A stretch of DNA of 64,000 nt. Origin: Curvularia clavata. Lineage: Eukaryota. Every line of letters begins with the position of its first letter. The first letter of the stretch is position 1. The stretch is from assembly GCA_023920165.1 (NCBI GenBank), contig CP089277.1:2666001-2730000 (forward strand), in the 5' to 3' direction. Made by a program: the position numbers and the translations under genes. Positions 36,970 to 45,177 of this stretch are shown one piece after another. The notes under the pieces were generated by a model, which had not been told where the DNA came from, ran no database searches, and was given only the letters and a program-made list of their open reading frames with translations.

Positions 36970-39377
36970 CTACTCGAACCCCTCCTCCTTCGCATCCACC
37001 TCCCCCTTCGACCTCTCAAGCGTCGGACTCAACGGCGCCAAATCACCCAGCGGCGGCGCCTTTGCCCCTATCAAGCTCTTCCTATGTAACCTCGGACTCT
37101 TATCCAGCGTCTCCGCCACCTCCTCCACCTCTGGACTCTGCACGCGACGACCGCCATGCTCGTCATCACCACCATGCCCATCATCGCCGAACCCCTGGTT
37201 CGTAAGCCTCAAGCCCAGAATCTGCTGCCGCAGCTCATCCACAAAGCGCTGCATATCCTCAAACGGCAGGCTGACGACGGCTCCATCCGGATTCTCAGCC
37301 GTGGTATTGTACAGTCTGAGCGCTGAGTCGAGAGCGCGCTCCGCCTGCTGAGATTTCTCAAGACGGTACCAGGTTTCTGCCGCAAGGACGGACCAGAGGG
37401 CTGCTTTGCGGCGGCGGGAACCCAGCTTGTAGGTTCCGAGGCCGGTGCGGATGGCGTAGCAGGCGGAGATGCGTTCGGTGATGAGGGCGTGGCCGACGGA
37501 GCCGACAAGACTAGAGTCCAGAATGCGAGTTGCCCAGCGGGCGGCGTCGTCTGCGGCGGAGGAGCCACGCAGGCGGAGGAGCTCGAAGGAGAGGGCGAGA
37601 GTGCGCAGAGCATAGTACGGTGCTGCACTGCGTTGGCGGTCCGTGTACGAGTAGGATGCGGCTTCAATCCAGGCGTCGATGTTTTCAGCGCGTGATTTGG
37701 CAGACAGAGGTGTGGGTGACATGAGGGCGGAGAGAGCGGCCATTTCTGCTGCGCCGGCGTAGTGTCGCCACGCTTTGTCGTTTTGGAAATCCGTACGCAG
37801 AATGTCGTAGGTGCTGAGTGCTAGCTTCCAGTCTCGAAGCATGAAGCAGTAGTCTGCTAGGCGGCGCATGATGGCTTCAGGGGCATCTGGGCGATAGAAG
37901 CCTTGCAGGCTGTCGTAGTTTGAGTTTCCTGATACTGTGGACGAGGAGCCGCTCGTGCGTGAGCCGCCAAATGGTGTCCAGCGTTTGGAGAGCGACATGA
38001 AGCGGCCGGAGAGTCCTCGCCGTCGAGATAGGATTTGCTCGTTCCACGTGGCGACGCTGCGCTCCATGTTGGGTATTATCGACTGTGTAACCAACTCGCG
38101 GATAAACGTGCGCAGGCTACTGATATCAGACTCTGGGAAGTAGGGCGTTGGATCTGTGATGTCGTCTGTCGTTTCTGCAAAAGAAAAGCTGTCAGTACAT
38201 GATGACAACCAGTCGTGATAATTATCATAGGCCTACCTCTTCTTTGGATCTCTGCCAGCTCCTCCGAAGCAGACATCCACTCGCACGTCGGTAGGCGCAC
38301 GCTATCGTCATCTGACGCTATGCATTGTTGGCTCTTGAGTCGTAGCAAATGGCAGTGTAGTCCAAAGTGTCGCTTCATTGAATCAAACGTCTGGTTCGAC
38401 TTGGCAATGTCTCCCGTCTCTTCGTCATGTATTAGAACGTAATAGCGTAAAAAGTCGTTTTCTACCCATTGCGGGAAGCGAAGGTCTCCATCGTGCTGGC
38501 GATTGTACAGTCTCCGTAGCTCTTCTATCGGATGTGGGTTGCGCGAGCTGATTGCTATTATGCCGGCTACGGGGTGCGAGAAGGTCTCATGCGGTACCAC
38601 TGGCAGTCCTGAAAGTAGTCGCCGCAGATATAGTGTGTAAAAAGGCGATGAGGTGCTATCTATTGGTGGCCCTGGCGGCTCACCCTGGTTCATGTAATCG
38701 GACACAGCATCTTGCCTGTTGAACTCGGAGTACTGCAGATGGCGATCCACCAGCTCTTCAATCTGTGAAACATCGCCTCCTGAGCGCCTTGGATGCCGCG
38801 TGGCGCCTACAGGTGTTCTCGGCTTGCCTGTCTGGACATGCAGATCCGGATATGCGTCCTCAACACCAATAAAGCGTACACCAAAGTCCTCCCAGCTCTT
38901 GCTTGCCCCATTGCTATCTCTTATAGTCACCTTTCCTGGGACTGCCTCGCCAAATGGGCGTAACAGCTGTAGGAGGCCTCCTTCAAGCCCCTTTGCCCGC
39001 ATCAACTCCTCCGTCTGCGCATCCGCAAGGACAGCGACACATGGCACAAAGGCCCGTTTGATCAGTGTCCGATATTCATCTGATACACCCGGCGGCAGGC
39101 TACTTGGCGTACCTGTACCACTCAGCCGCGACCCTGGGGAGAAGACAGAGCCCTGAGGATGTGTCTGGGTGGGGGTTGCGGTGCCTGAATTAGGGCGCGA
39201 CGTGGATATGGTGGTTGTCGACTCAAAGAGCTTGGACAGGCTGGGGTTGGAGCGGCGGTAGGGGAGGCTCGAGAGAGAGGATGCAGGCGACGCGCGGTGC
39301 TTGGGCAATATCATGGATGCCTCCAAGTCGGCTGGGTACTTTGGGGGTTTGGGCGTGGCATCCTGAGGCGGCGTCAT
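36970..39377 (-). CDS. TRS85: TRAPP III subunit Trs85/TRAPPC8
   Basis: LLRPFGE, PHETFSHPV, LRYYVLIHDE, MKRHFGLHCHLLRL, FIRELVTQSIIP.MER and RRLADYCFMLRDW. Intron at 38175-38236. Confidence 0.9.
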
Positions 39378-39755
39378 GGGAGGCTAGGGCAATGCGCCCG
39401 CGGGGTTCTGAATGCACACGGGGCTTCTGAGGCTGCCGGCATGTATCCTGATTGTCGTCTACCGGGCTTGAGCGACGACGAGTCGTTAGTGGCCGAATTC
39501 GCTTTCTGGTTGGCAGCGGCGCGTGTGACGACGTTGAGTTGAGTGACGCTGCATCGCCGTTGCGGCCGCTGCGCTTTCTGACTGGACGAAAGGCGGCATC
39601 TCCAGAAACCCTTGCATGTGTACCTCCACACAGCACGGCGACTCTCTGCACCCATTGCCAGCTTGTTTCTAATCCTCTTGTGCTGTTCCGCTCTTCTTGT
39701 CGCTCCTTACTGTGCTCGCAGGCCACGGACTATCCATCCATTCTGACTCACATGG

Positions 39756-42700
39756 ATGTCGCTGATAAGTCGAGCCTTCCGCATCGCTCCACCAACCTTT
39801 TCTCTGCTCTACAAACGTGACTTTTACCTATCACCTGCACGCCTTCCCTTTACAGGACACTCCACTCTCAGAGCTCTACATTTCCCTACCACTTCATCAC
39901 CTCGTATGTCCAGAGCAAGCCCCTCACCTGAACTGCAACCGCCGAGCCCAAAACGACGCAAAATCGGTGCGCCATCACCACAGTTCATTCAGCCTTACGG
40001 AGCCATGGCTTCTACAGGAGATACAAAGTCACCGCAGCTGGAGTTGACAGAGGTCGAATCCAAGCTACGACAGCTGCTACTTGACGTAGCCACCTACATT
40101 GACGAAACACCGTCAAATGGAGACGTTAGTGCCGTACAGGTACCACCCGAACTGGCCAAAGAAAAAATTGTCCTACGTTGGACAGGAGGGTGGGTGCGTG
40201 ACAAGCTGCTGAAAGTCGGCAGCCACGACATCGATGTGGCCATCAACAAGATGACCGGAGAGCACTTTGGCTTGAAGATGCAAGAGTACCTTGAGATTCC
40301 AGGAAACGCAGAAAAGCATGGTCTCATCGACAAGAGCGAAGGGCTGAGTGCTCGCGACAAGACAAAGAAGATTGCACCAGGTTTGCATAAGATTGAGGCG
40401 AACCCCGAAAAGTCAAAGAACTTGGAGACAGCTACGACAAAAATCATGGGCATTGACCTGGATCTTGTCAACCTCCGAAAAGAAACCTACAACGAAGTCT
40501 CTCGCAATCCCCAAATGGAGTTTGGCACAGCGGAAGAAGACGCCATGCGCCGTGATGCTACCGTAAATGCCATGTTCTTTAACCTGCATACCTGTCAAGT
40601 TGAAGATTTTACAGGGCGCGGGCATGATGACATGGCTGCTAAGATTATCCGAACGCCTCTGGAACCCTACCAGACATTCAAAGACGATCCACTGCGAGTA
40701 CTGCGATTAATTCGCTTTGCCAGCCGTCTAGATTACACCATTGAGCCTGAGACGGCAAAAGCCATGGGCAATCCGGAGATTCAAGACGTCTTAAAAATCA
40801 AAATCAGTCGAGAACGTGTCGGCATTGAGCTCGAGAAGATGCTAAAGGGCCCCAGGCCTCGGATGGCCCTGGAGCTCATCGACCGGTTCGGCCTGTATCG
40901 TACTGTCTTTACAGATCCCACACGAGAGTTACCCGCAGAGCCTGAAACGGGTTACTTCAAGCCAGCATATGAGGTAGTCGAGTCAGTAGTGACCAAAAGC
41001 GACGATGTACCTACTGTTGTCCCGGATACACTTCTGAGGAACGACGATGACAAGTACCTTGCCTGGATTTGCGCTACCATGATGCCATGGGCTGATGCGC
41101 CCACTGTTCCTCATCAGAAGCCCTTGCAGCGGCCGTACTTTGTTGGTTACCTTGTCGCCAGAGAGGGTTTCAAAGCCCCGAACAAGGTTTGCGACGTCAT
41201 TACTTCTTCACTGAGCAACGGTGAGGAGATCCGTAACCTTGTCGCTCAGTGCGTCAAGGGGCTCCGACGGCCTGACACTATCAATCCAAACAACAATCCC
41301 ACTGCCAGAGACACTCTGGGCATGGCTATCCGCCGTTGGGGATCTACTTGGCGGACGCAGGTTCTCTTCAACCTTGTTTATGAGATTGTGCTCGGACGGG
41401 TGTCAAAAACTGGTAGGTCACTCTATTTCAACTTTTCAATTTACATCTTGCTGACCAGAATCAGACCTGTTCCGCTCGTATGCCAGCTTCCTTAGCCGCG
41501 TCACCGAACTTGATCTCCTTGAGGTCGACACTTTCAGGCCACTTATCAAAGGAACTGATCTTGCCAAGGCTCTCAACACCAAACCTGGGCCATGGATGAA
41601 GGAGGCGCTGGATGTCGTCATGGCCTGGCAGTTGCGCAACCCCGACAACACTGATACGGCGGGCGCCATCAAGGCGGTCGAGGCTTCGAGAAGCGAACAG
41701 AACGAAAGTGAGCTTCCCCTTCGCCTGGCTTCACACTTTCTCCAGCTTACCATCCCACCTTTCTTTCCGCAGAATAAACCTACATCGAATGCATTGGAAG
41801 CATCGCGGCAACCAGCCCCATGGAAAGACGCCGGGAACCAGTACGTGCTCGACCTCTTGGCATGGTCGATTCGTGTGTTGGACAGGAAAACAGTGGAGGA
41901 CAAGTGGCGGTTTTTGATGCCTCCGGTCCTTAGGATGATGGACGACATCAATGTGGAATGGAAGGCAAAAGGCTGTCACATGCTCGGTCTGTTGCTGGAT
42001 GTTCTAAGGCAACCGCTCAGCACAGGTAGTTCACAAAAGGCTGCTGTGCAAAAGTCAACCCCCACAAGCTTCCTTCTGCGAAGTGGATATCACAACATTT
42101 TCGCGGAAGCCCTACTACCTATGTTCACCTACATTCCTTCGATTACACCGGAAAGGGAATCCGTGATTCTGTTTAGGGCGGTCTTCCCTGCCGTGATTTC
42201 GCTTGCCTTGCTCCTGCCCGAAGACAGCAGCAAAGGCGACAGTAAAGAGCTATTCTTAGACAGAGTCCTCCGAGAGGGTGTTCTGTCCCCTCTTGGACAT
42301 TTCACTACGCCCTCTATGTACCCTGAACTTGCTACGTTGATCATGTCACAGGTCCCTATTGTGGTGAACCACATGGGCATTGATACGGTCAAACATCTTC
42401 CAGACATTGTACCTCTGCTCTCAGCAATCCTACAGGAGCCATTTGCGCTCAGCCACCACAAACTAGTTGGTTCAGCTCTCGAGGCACTGCAGAGTGTGAT
42501 GCTTAACGCTTGGCCACGGATACCTGGTCACCGTGGTAGCATCATGATGGGCCTGTGCTTATTGTGGAGCCGGTGGTTAGAAGAAGAAAAGAAGTGTGGT
42601 AGCGAGCAAGTTGCACAAGTCAAGATGCAAGTCCAAGAAACGGTCGCGATGCTAGACGCCGTAATGCAGCGCGTGGACGAAGCGGGTATGGCGGAGACAT

Positions 42701-42804
42701 GGAAGACGGAAAAACAGGATTTGGTTGCAGCGGAGCCCGGATGTGAAGAAATGTTTGGTGGGTGTGCGGAGAATATGCCCTTGAACGAGACAGATGGTAG
42801 CTAG
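39756..42804 (+). CDS. CCA1: CCA tRNA nucleotidyltransferase fused in frame to a C-terminal Tti2-like helical domain (998 aa)
   Basis: Class II motifs GGWVRDKLL, DIDVA, DLVNLRKETY, EEDAMRRDATVNA, DDPLRVLRLIRFASR and ISRERVG.E. Intron 41413-41464 leads to the usual CCA tail KPGPWMKEALDVVMAWQLRNP. The frame then stays open about 365 more codons with a Tti2-like pattern. Confidence 0.88.
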
Positions 42805-44251
42805 AGGTGTCTGGCGGAAGCCCGGATCAAGACGAAAGAAAAATCGAGGTCCGCACGTGCATGGTTCGTGGGCACCACCAATGGGCAGCCCGGTCAGGTC
42901 GATGTGACAACATTGCTAGCTGCTTTTGCAATGGCAGGAGGTTGCAGGATGCAAAAGTTGGCAGTCATGGCAATGGCGTGCATCTGTCCAAGGTGGTTGC
43001 ATCACCAGACGAGGTCGAGCTTGGCAGTTGACGGCGGGGGTTTGTGGCGGTGCGGGGCGGCAGTGGGGGCTGGAAGCGCCAAGATATGGCACAGCAACAT
43101 CGATACGAGCGCTGAGTTGCGACATGCTTGGCTGTGTATTCTAGCTCGGAGCCCCTTCCCGAGTAAGCAGGCCAAAGTTATCCAGCTACCTCTATATATA
43201 TTTTGGCGCAGCACACGTGGGATCGTATCTGTAGGCGTGACGAAGCGCGAGGGTCGTGGCGGCGGGAGTGTGGCTGGTGGAGCGTGGCCGCACCAGCGGG
43301 CCGCCCACCCCACCCCTGACATGACGGCGTCTTGCTATTGGATGCTTGTGTCGACGGACGCGCGTCTTGTGTTGAATAAGACGGCATCCCGGACGAGCGT
43401 GATATCAGCATTACGCCTTTGGTTGGCGCATCCCGTAGTCCTGACAAGCTGCATATCCCGGCTCGAGCATGTCCTTCGTCCGAGCCTGACGGCGGCTTCA
43501 CTACGGTGACGACGTAGTGTAGTGGGTAGTGCTGCTACTGCGACGTTTCGACGGTTGCAGATGAAGGTCCATCTACCCTGGCGGAAATTTAACCCGCGCC
43601 ATGGGGTCTGGAAACTCGGGGCCAATGACAGAAAAGGGCGTTGGCGCATAGCTCCCCGTGTCTTTTAGTAAATATTATTGTAGTTATGGAACAGTGCACC
43701 TTGTGCCTCGCCAGTCAAAGGCTGTGTGCGTGCGTGGCGGTGCCTTGGGGGCGGCGGACTTGATGAGGCACGACGAGATGGTGTCGAGGCAGCGAGACAT
43801 GGGCTCTGCAACGGCGTATAGTCCCAAGAATAACAATAAAAGAAACACGGTGCTCCACGTCGAGCGCGCGTCTGCCGCATGCAGAGTCTCGACGTCAGGT
43901 CGACCAACGAGGCAACTCACCAAGCTTGGACCCAGCCTTGTCAAGCCGGTTACTGGATTGCGCCGGCGCCCACCCCCCTTGACATGGCATAGTGCCCTCA
44001 ATTCATCCCGCTGCGCCTACACCAATTCCTCCCGCACCTCCTTGTCCTCCTCCTCTGCTGCTGTCGCTGCCGCTGTCGCCGCTGCTGCTACCGCGACCTC
44101 ACATGTGCTCTGCGCCAGCTGCAACGACGCTCTACCCCGATCCTTTGCGGCATTCTTCGACGGTTCCTCCCGCGCAGCGAGGCAACCTGCCGCCAATCCT
44201 CTGAGTTCGCGCCGGGATTCAGTGCTCGGTATCGCGAACTGTTGTAAGACC

Positions 44252-45177
44252 ATGGCCAGAGCTTACGTCGCGTTGCTCAACTCCACATCCTCGACGACGA
44301 CGACGTGTCTTGTCAGCTCCAACCAGGACGTCACCACAATACCCGCAACTCCCTCGCCGCCTCCGCCCAAGCCCTACAACTCCGCCGCCCGCTCGACGGG
44401 CGCCTTCGTCTACGCAAAGGCCAAAGATTCGGCTGCATACCGCTTCGCAAGGCTGCCCATGCCTCTCGAGTTTTCCATTTCGTCGCGAGCGCATTGGCTC
44501 AGCCGGGTCCGCTCATGTCTCCGCCTGCTCATCATCGTCCTGAGCGGCGTCGTCGTGTGCATGTTGATGCACACTTTCGAGATATATCGGGGCAATCGCT
44601 ACATCGACCTGCGCAAGGGAGAACTGCCCATGGTCTGGCCTGCCCACACAAACCTCGCTCCTAGCATCGCCCTCTTCTGCATTGCCGCCCTAAACTTTCT
44701 CGCCTCGGTCGCCATCCTCACCCTGTCCTTCAAACGCTCCTTCCGCCGACCCTTTCGCTCACGAGACGTCTACCGTGTCGTCGCTGGCAGCTTCGGCGTC
44801 ATCACCTGGATCACGGCGCTGGTCGTCTTCTACCTGCTCAACAAGGCGAGCAAGGCTAGCTTGGGCCGATACTCGTGCACAAACAAGAACTTGTTGACCA
44901 ATGGGAGGTACCAGTACCGCGCCGTCTGCGAGGAGCAGGTAACATTACCCTCTTGTCTAGCCCTGCATACCGCCTTTGCTAACCCACCATCCAGGGAGTT
45001 GCATTCTACACCGCCATTGGCGCCGCTTGCGCCGAGATTCTCACCCTCATCACCCTCGCCATCTCTGCGGCCCTTTCAGCGAAGAACAACCATAATCCAC
45101 CTCCAATGATCCAGATTCGCGAGAAGAACAACTCCATCAGCTCTGGCTCAAAGTTTCAGAGGCCGTTAAAACGGTAA
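44252..45177 (+). CDS. Four-TM MARVEL-like membrane protein
   Basis: ATG at 44252 (ACCATGG). Hydrophobic helices LRLLIIVLSGVVVCMLM, IALFCIAALNFLASVAIL and VVAGSFGVITWITALVVF; a fourth follows intron 44939-44994. Paired Cys in the last loop. Confidence 0.7.

Follow-up and report, generated by a model that had tools for sequence, protein, structure and literature searches.

The CCA-adding enzyme is needed for every tRNA. In yeast, several in-frame AUGs of CCA1 yield sorting isozymes. Tti2 is essential as well: it is one subunit of the chaperone that assembles kinases of the TOR and ATR/ATM kind. Kua-UEV is a conjoined, or read-through, gene, and exitrons are introns inside coding exons. Exitrons were reportedly described by Marquez et al. 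in 2015, and Freitag et al. are said to have described fungal C-terminal switching through alternative splicing in 2012. Here we consider a gene of Curvularia clavata in which a CCA-adding enzyme and a Tti2-like domain share one reading frame. It lies in a stretch of 64,000 nucleotides (nt) of assembly GCA_023920165.1 (contig CP089277.1, positions 2,666,001 to 2,730,000 of the forward strand), which we call the window and to which all coordinates refer. An earlier note on this DNA had described the gene as a simple chimera. The fusion itself stands, but a constitutive chimera does not, since a 65-nt intron at the joint allows a CCA enzyme of normal length. Removal of this intron restores a stop, so the locus can be taken to encode two products. 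We think it probable that this is one transcription unit that gives two proteins by way of the 65-nt intron, that it arose from tandem neighbours, and that it is conserved across the Dothideomycetes and some other lineages.

There are two open reading frames (ORFs) at the locus, one running from its ATG at 39756 to 41495 and the other covering 41455-42804. They are joined by a first intron with the borders G/GTAGGT ... CTGAC ... CAG/AC. When it is removed the translation has 998 codons, 0 internal stops and its end at the TAG at 42802-42804. The frame does continue past 'KPGPWMKEALDVVMAWQLRNP' without a stop, as had been claimed, and the claimed length of 998 amino acids (aa) is right when counted from the first ATG. 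Exactly at the joint of the CCA and Tti2 parts, GTGAGC at 41708 and a CAG ending at 41772 frame 65 nt of this open frame, with a branch-like site between them (GTGAGCT, GCTTACC, CAG). When retained, the 65 nt encode 'SELPLRLASHFLQLTIPPFFPQ', which is the first helix of the Tti2 part. The peptide SELPLRLASHFLQLTIPPFFPQ is also the most conserved stretch in an alignment of 33 relatives. When the 65 nt are removed the frame shifts to A/AA TAA, which is a lysine followed by the stop at 41775-41777, and the product is a CCA enzyme of 634 aa from M1.

We took 67 related loci from metagenome contigs. The 65-nt element is intact, with the same open joint, in 59 of them. L021 and L058 are without the element exactly, L066 and L067 are unfused CCA genes with a stop shortly after 'KEL', and L023, L064 and L065 are cut by the end of the locus at or next to the element. 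The last, L037, has a variant 3' site: the 5' site is the same GTGAG, the nearest 3' CAG is 62 nt downstream, and this too is frame-shifting with a stop after two codons. Conservation was counted over 48 distinct sequences with full flanks, namely 47 metagenome loci and the window. The element is 65 nt long in 48/48, and GTGAGCT and the 3' AG are likewise present in 48/48. The branch-like CTTAC has two variable positions, each of which is consensus in 47/48 (one locus has CTGAC and one CTTTC). As its first codon the element has AGT (Ser) in 15 sequences and GGT (Gly) in 33, and as its last CAG (Gln) in 15 and AAG (Lys) in 33. The residues at the borders of the element vary while GT and AG stay constant. 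Of the 22 third codon positions in the element 3 are invariant, namely the last letters of xGT, GAG and xAG. The invariant ones are 0 of 30 on the upstream side and 0 of 30 on the downstream side (30 codons each).

A codon control was made with the 29 of these sequences that have a 120-nt upstream window, using the motif PGxWMxxALDVVMAWQL of the CCA tail. All ten of its invariant degenerate residues use at least two codons. Gln is CAG in 14 and CAA in 15, Lys is AAA in 18 and AAG in 11, and the second Leu uses 6 codons. In the same 29 sequences the Glu of the element is GAG 29 times and the Leu of the branch-like site is CTT 28 times. Removal of the 65 nt shifts the frame in 48/48, and a stop is then met within 1-29 codons. 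The number of codons ahead of it is 1 in 16 sequences, 3 in 2, 4 in 11, 11 in 10 and 26-29 in 9. In those 16 the stop has the same position as the TAA of the window.

Compared with L001, L021 is shorter by exactly 46 nt (intron 1) and 65 nt. L058 differs from L016 in the same way, by about 45 nt and by 65 nt, and each pair has 99-100% identity elsewhere (blastn). The equivalent of intron 1 is missing from both, and they are the only two of the 67 loci that join exon 1 directly to exon 2, which makes them the only cDNA-like loci of the set. The ORF of L021 ends with '...GQTDK' and a stop, 633 aa from its first ATG. That of L058 ends with '...MKNEI' and a stop. The whole Tti2 region continues behind that stop, which means the short isoform uses the same transcript body. 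The invariant splice signals and the exact absence of the element from two cDNA-like contigs together imply that the 65-nt element is a real intron.

The retained form is seen in RNA of this species. Contigs of four public runs were compared with 39300-43400. Record 10 of run X5 (3579 nt) covers 39541-41411 and 41464-43144. Its sole joint is a 52-nt GT..AG skip, and the 65 nt are kept. A contig from which only intron 1 has been removed must be derived from RNA, so both halves of the gene lie on one RNA. An assembly error at the junction, which the earlier note had named as a way to be wrong, and a merger of two genes are therefore unlikely. The window-matching contigs that retain the 65 nt are X5 record 10, X9 record 14 and X1 record 2, whereas X13 record 7 ends at 41770 with no bridging of the element. 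The X1 contig (3878 nt; 39661-43400) keeps both introns, although it stops at the intergenic region as an RNA contig would. It could be RNA rich in pre-mRNA or DNA in fragments, and since even intron 1 is kept we left X1 out as RNA evidence. P0006, a 908-aa ORF on a 3165-nt contig, crosses both junctions, and intron 1 is absent from it (tblastn against L004). Judged by its protein sequence, this looks like a second retained-form cDNA. Public gene models give the fusion only, often from the second ATG, and none has the short isoform. The features of the locus are collected in Table 1.

Table 1. Parts of the fusion gene and the RNA contig that spans them, in window positions.
Feature	Position	Strand	Basis or remark
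CCA enzyme-Tti2 fusion gene (one gene)	39756-42804	+	ORF list and spliced reading
Exon 1: leader and CCA-adding enzyme head, neck and body	39756..41412	+	ORF and Pfam
Intron 1, 52 nt, GTAGGT..CTGAC..CAG, phase 1	41413..41464	+	removed in RNA contig X5 record 10
Exon 2a: C-terminal tail of the CCA enzyme	41465..41707	+	alignment to S. pombe cca2/cca1
65-nt exitron-like intron, GTGAGCT...GCTTACC...CAG	41708..41772	+	kept in all 48 distinct sequences compared; missing in L021 and L058
TAA stop, in frame only once the 65 nt are removed	41775..41777	+	spliced reading ends '...SEQNEK' and stop
Rest of the Tti2-family domain and C-terminal tail, to TAG 42802-42804	41773..42804	+	Pfam Tti2 1e-59
RNA contig with both halves (X5 record 10)	39541..43144	+	contig ends are not transcript ends

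The first part of the gene is, by its profiles and motifs, a class II CCA-adding enzyme with predicted activity. Exon 1 has both the head and the RNA-binding domain profiles of a class II CCA-adding tRNA nucleotidyltransferase in Pfam (PolyA_pol PF01743, 1.8e-21, residues 141-299; PolyA_pol_RNAbd PF12627, 3.4e-8, residues 327-385). GGWVRD...DIDVA, EDAMRRDATVNA and DDPLRVLRLIRF occur in its ORF, and RRD and DDPLRVLR can be read there too. We take GGWVRD..DID, RRD and DDPLRVLR to be the catalytic carboxylate and nucleotide-selecting motifs of CCA-adding enzymes. The start of exon 2 aligns to residues 414-474 of 487 of S. pombe cca2 (9ns4_A) and to residues 431-484 of 502 of S. pombe cca1 (9ns2_A). 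The match of exon 2a to tRNA_NucTran2_2 is below threshold (24.8 bits, cut-off 27). From the S. pombe alignments a normal CCA enzyme would end about 13-18 residues past 'RNPDNT', and the Tti2 match begins about there, within about 15 residues of the ends of the S. pombe enzymes. There are three in-frame ATGs, at 39756 (M1), 39906 (M51) and 40005 (M84). The public model for Curvularia clavata, P0001, has 100% identity over the 445-aa exon-2 translation that was used as query. Its length of 948 aa is what is expected for a start at the second of these ATGs, 39906. The leader from M1 is arginine-rich ('MSLISRAF...LLYKRDF'), and it is kept in the cDNA-like L021, whose ORF begins at the first ATG. 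A conserved M1 leader suggests that a mitochondrial isoform may have been left out of the annotation.

The second part can be assigned to the Tti2 family. The exon-2 translation matches Pfam Tti2 (PF10521) with E 1e-59 (202.8 bits; the cut-off is 25.2) and covers positions 25-278 of the 279 in the profile. This agrees with the assignment in the earlier note, which had been made from motifs. Those motifs (PWK, MPPVLRMMDD, VKHL, NAWPRI) do fall in invariant or nearly invariant columns of the 33 aligned relatives. The claim that the N-terminus of Tti2 is missing also holds up. Stand-alone Tti2 proteins match PF10521 from position 2-4 (13 in P0323) and have 58-171 residues ahead of the domain. The fusion does not have this full-length architecture with an N-terminal region, its match starting at profile position 25. 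A stand-alone Penicillium Tti2 (P0195, 584 aa) aligns to exon-2 residues 118-428 from its residue 244 to 559 (BLASTP, 29% identity, E 2e-31, 311 query residues in 339 alignment columns). Proteins of fused length (892-1000 aa) match P0195 from its residue ~196-200 in an exhaustive phmmer search. The Tti2 part of the fusion thus appears to be without about 195-240 N-terminal residues of stand-alone fungal Tti2.

Human TTI2 gives a scale for what is gone. A profile of the 33-sequence alignment (A1) matches human TTI2 (7f4u_C) with E 4.8e-5. In the profile alignment the invariant Trp of PWK aligns to W219, in a stretch that is weak alone, and the VKHL...WPR block aligns to 360-433. The motifs in common with human TTI2 (WK, VKHL, WPR) are invariant among the aligned relatives. 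By this mapping the fusion would keep roughly the equivalent of human TTI2 ~180-508. An AlphaFold2 model of the exon-2 product is all-helical with a mean confidence (pLDDT) of 79.7. Its fold is generic: importin/ARM/HEAT solenoids come out on top in Foldseek against the PDB (E >= 2e-3), and VIA-align gives generic ARM/HEAT structures as well (Z 17.7, root-mean-square deviation 5.0, 274 aligned). TTI2 chains are not among the matches listed in either structure search, so that the fold speaks neither for nor against the Pfam assignment. Pal et al. (PMC8278493) report for the human proteins that TTI1 was pulled down by GST-TTI2(1-193) but not by TTI2(194-508), which was insoluble. A review (PMC10178989) places the C-terminus of Tti1 against the N-terminus of Tti2.

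The range of the fusion, which the earlier note had proposed to map, was examined by a protein search with the 445-aa exon-2 translation. Every one of the 95 homologues of 780-2225 aa has PF01743 together with PF10521. The majority come from Dothideomycetes (Pleosporales, Mycosphaerellales-type, Venturiales, Botryosphaeriales and Aureobasidium), and Xylona, a few lichen-forming and other fungi are also among them. A regular expression finds 'SEL' at the joint in 54 of the fused models, 'GEL' in 27, another motif in 10 and no anchor motif in 4. By eye, the ten comprise about five GEL, one REL and four without the motif. To judge from these proteins the fusion is class-wide and not peculiar to this genome. 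It is also already present in public gene models.

Proteins of 385-450 aa that look like Tti2 alone were considered as stand-alone genes and rejected. They start inside the CCA tail, and most are on metagenome or Logan contigs. On raw contigs of many fungi these short ORFs show the CCA tail and Tti2 in one open frame. We read them as ORFs that were probably cut at intron 1. A word-filtered search with the Tti2 of a lichen fungus (P0266) gave no stand-alone Tti2 with a Dothideomycete name among the matches listed (0/74). The named matches listed were lichen-forming fungi, Leotiomycetes and Sordariomycetes. A search for Tti2 homologues, also word-filtered, gave for the Dothideomycetes, among the matches listed, nothing beyond short or split versions of this locus, P0163 and P0172 for example. 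These results hint that the fusion might be the only Tti2 in the Dothideomycetes.

The unfused relatives suggest where the fusion came from. In L066 (548-2269) the CCA gene ends with 'AIEEVKKRSKELNIPI' and a stop at 821-823. A match to positions 1-110 of the Tti2 profile (Pfam E 3.1e-22), the N-terminal region included, follows on this strand after about 1 kb. It contains 'FLLQSFIRPLFSKSK', the homologue of the fused joint. Since CCA and Tti2 genes stand in tandem in L066, tandem CCA1-TTI2 neighbours are likely the ancestral state. As for the intron, its 5' splice site falls in codons of CCA origin ('[SG]EL', where unfused genes have 'KEL') and the remainder in codons of Tti2 origin. During fusion the DNA between the genes and the 5' part of TTI2, the downstream one, would have been deleted. 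It must be noted that P0092, P0093 and P0094 (1029-1236 aa; Onygenales, Chlorociboria) contain the Tti2 profile in full, 1-279, and continue into the N-terminus of Tti2. These may be merged neighbours rather than true fusions.

We argue that the gene would work as follows. Where the 65-nt intron is spliced, the lysine codon and TAA would end an ordinary CCA enzyme of 634 aa, whose start may also be M51 or M84 by likeness to yeast CCA1. The Tti2 region (41773..42804) is then 3' untranslated region (UTR). Where the intron is retained, the enzyme would run on into the Tti2-family HEAT-repeat domain and the 998-aa fusion would result. Such a protein may physically link tRNA maturation to PIKK chaperoning, as the earlier note had proposed. 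The 65 nt are presumably spliced in this species too. The fusion protein would be translated and would supply the Tti2 function of the cell, and the splice ratio would set the amount of each product. Because its 3' UTR is about 1 kb long, the spliced mRNA might be a target of nonsense-mediated decay. One can go further and imagine that in the Dothideomycetes the tail of the CCA enzyme is the sole Tti2, that the body of the enzyme replaces the Tti1-binding half, and that the switch is regulated and couples the capacity for tRNA 3'-end maturation to the supply of the Tel2-Tti1-Tti2 (TTT) complex. We hold this extension to be possible but doubtful. If it were true, the coupled supply of TTT would reach TOR, ATR/ATM and Tra1 levels.

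Other explanations have to be weighed against this one. On one view the 65 nt are nothing but coding sequence, so that only the fusion matters as a product and the spliced contigs are rare splicing noise. The retained form is the only one seen on the window, the best conserved helix of the alignment is the one encoded by this segment, and the segment is homologous to stand-alone Tti2 coding sequence ('FLLQSFIRPLFSKSK' in L066). However, this does not account for invariant synonymous sites that fall exactly on the splice signals and nowhere in the flanks, nor for Ser/Gly and Gln/Lys swaps that keep GT and AG. A TAA directly past the junction in 16/48 distinct sequences is against it too, and the spliced form is the assembled form in both loci with a direct join of exon 1 to exon 2. 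A constitutive fusion is very unlikely in our opinion. It could also be said that two neighbouring genes were misread as one through an error of gene model or assembly. L066 does have CCA and TTI2 in tandem, and some long models (P0092, P0093, P0094) may be such merged neighbours. In the window, though, the domains are separated neither by a stop nor by intergenic DNA, and Tti2 homology begins within about 15 residues of where the S. pombe CCA enzymes end. The same open joint is found in 59 independent metagenome loci and an RNA contig crosses it. For the window this scenario is refuted unless the assembly and several independent contigs carry the same error, which is scarcely credible.

It is worth considering two scenarios in which the Tti2 part has a life of its own. 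It could be made alone, from an internal promoter or by initiation inside the gene (the ATG at 41596, for instance, would give 402 aa), and the fusion would be a by-product. The ORF 41596-42804 exists, Met44 of exon 2 is nearly invariant, and many gene callers give ORFs of this kind at 385-450 aa. But Met44 is just as conserved in the unfused CCA enzymes L066 and L067, so its conservation calls for no such start. Most of the short ORFs come from metagenome or Logan contigs, with starts as expected of calls cut off at intron 1. Inside the gene neither a contig break nor a cluster of starts is seen, though contigs cannot show starts. We find a separate Tti2 product highly improbable. Alternatively the truncated domain could be non-functional in TTT and have been recruited as an accessory of the CCA enzyme, offering, for instance, a HEAT-repeat platform to tRNA or to protein partners; canonical Tti2 would then be encoded elsewhere or be dispensable. 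That the counterpart of the half of human TTI2 reported to bind TTI1 (PMC8278493) is absent fits this, and so does a fold that is a generic HEAT/ARM solenoid. Against it, the WK, VKHL and WPR motifs in common with human TTI2 are invariant. The word-filtered searches, with no stand-alone Tti2 of a Dothideomycete name among the matches listed, also count against it, if weakly. We consider an accessory role unlikely.

The reading we prefer, one transcription unit with two products, has several points against it as well. The retained form is seen in this species and the spliced form in two relatives, never both in one organism or sample. There is no 41707/41773 joint on the window in the contigs of the four runs, which is weak evidence since contigs drop minor forms. 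L021 and L058 are both from the clade with a CAG 3' site. Splicing is not seen in the larger clade, whose AAG is a weak site. Strong protein conservation of the helix could account for part of the nucleotide conservation. The counterpart of the half of human TTI2 that is reported to pull down TTI1 (residues 1-193; PMC8278493) appears to be absent from the fusion, so normal TTT assembly by it is not assured. Even with these points, we argue that one gene with a splice switch is the probable explanation.

The surroundings of the gene can be described briefly. A divergent neighbour at 38076-39377 on the minus strand encodes a TRAPPC-Trs85 domain (Pfam 7.1e-69). The RNA-like contigs of both genes end in the gap that separates the two, ~40-125 nt long (39504-39540 in X5, 39537-39660 in X1). 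This points to a very short promoter region that the genes share. Downstream on the plus strand, an ORF at 43763-45109 encodes 448 aa that are Ser/Ala-rich with hydrophobic stretches near the C-terminus, and it has no Pfam match.

A literature search found no description of a CCA enzyme fused to a truncated Tti2 with a splice switch. The earlier statement that the fusion had not been described agrees with this. In the fungal exitron literature, judged by titles, there was nothing on a CCA-Tti2 gene. Already known kinds are both protein families, exitron-like introns, fungal C-terminal splice switching and conjoined genes. What the literature search did not turn up is the combination, a class-wide CCA enzyme with a truncated Tti2 and a splice switch that regenerates the unfused enzyme. 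A fungal class with many crop pathogens appears to tie two essential functions into one gene, separable by splicing. This offers natural experiments. One is how much of Tti2 the TTT complex requires, the part reported to bind TTI1 in humans (PMC8278493) being gone. Others are how fused genes go on making the unfused product, and whether growth signalling and tRNA supply are co-regulated. There is also a plain consequence for annotation, as the short isoform, and often the start at the first ATG, are missing from public models.

It remains to set the locus beside the systems it resembles. With yeast Cca1 and S. pombe cca1 and cca2 (PDB 9ns2/9ns4) the first part has in common the PolyA_pol head, the RNA-binding domain, the motifs and the C-terminal tail. 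Unlike in those enzymes, the frame here can continue for 365 residues and the normal end is reached only through splicing. As with the sorting isozymes of yeast CCA1, there are several in-frame ATGs with an arginine-rich leader. The second part shares with the Tti2 of the TTT co-chaperone the Pfam domain (PF10521) and the profile match to human TTI2 (7f4u_C), and its model is an all-helical solenoid of a generic type. It differs from stand-alone Tti2 in that it is not a separate gene and is without the first ~25 profile positions and the N-terminal region.

The splice switch has canonical signals inside coding sequence and a length that is not a multiple of three, and in this it is like exitrons and fungal C-terminal switching. 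Retention keeps the frame and removal alters the C-terminus, again as in those systems. Here, however, removal restores the ancestral stand-alone enzyme, retention adds an entire second protein, and the arrangement is conserved at the level of a class. With Kua-UEV the locus shares ancestrally adjacent genes (L066) that give a hybrid protein and a single-gene product. In contrast to Kua-UEV, the DNA between the two genes is gone together with the 5' part of the second, and this downstream partner is apparently without a start of its own.

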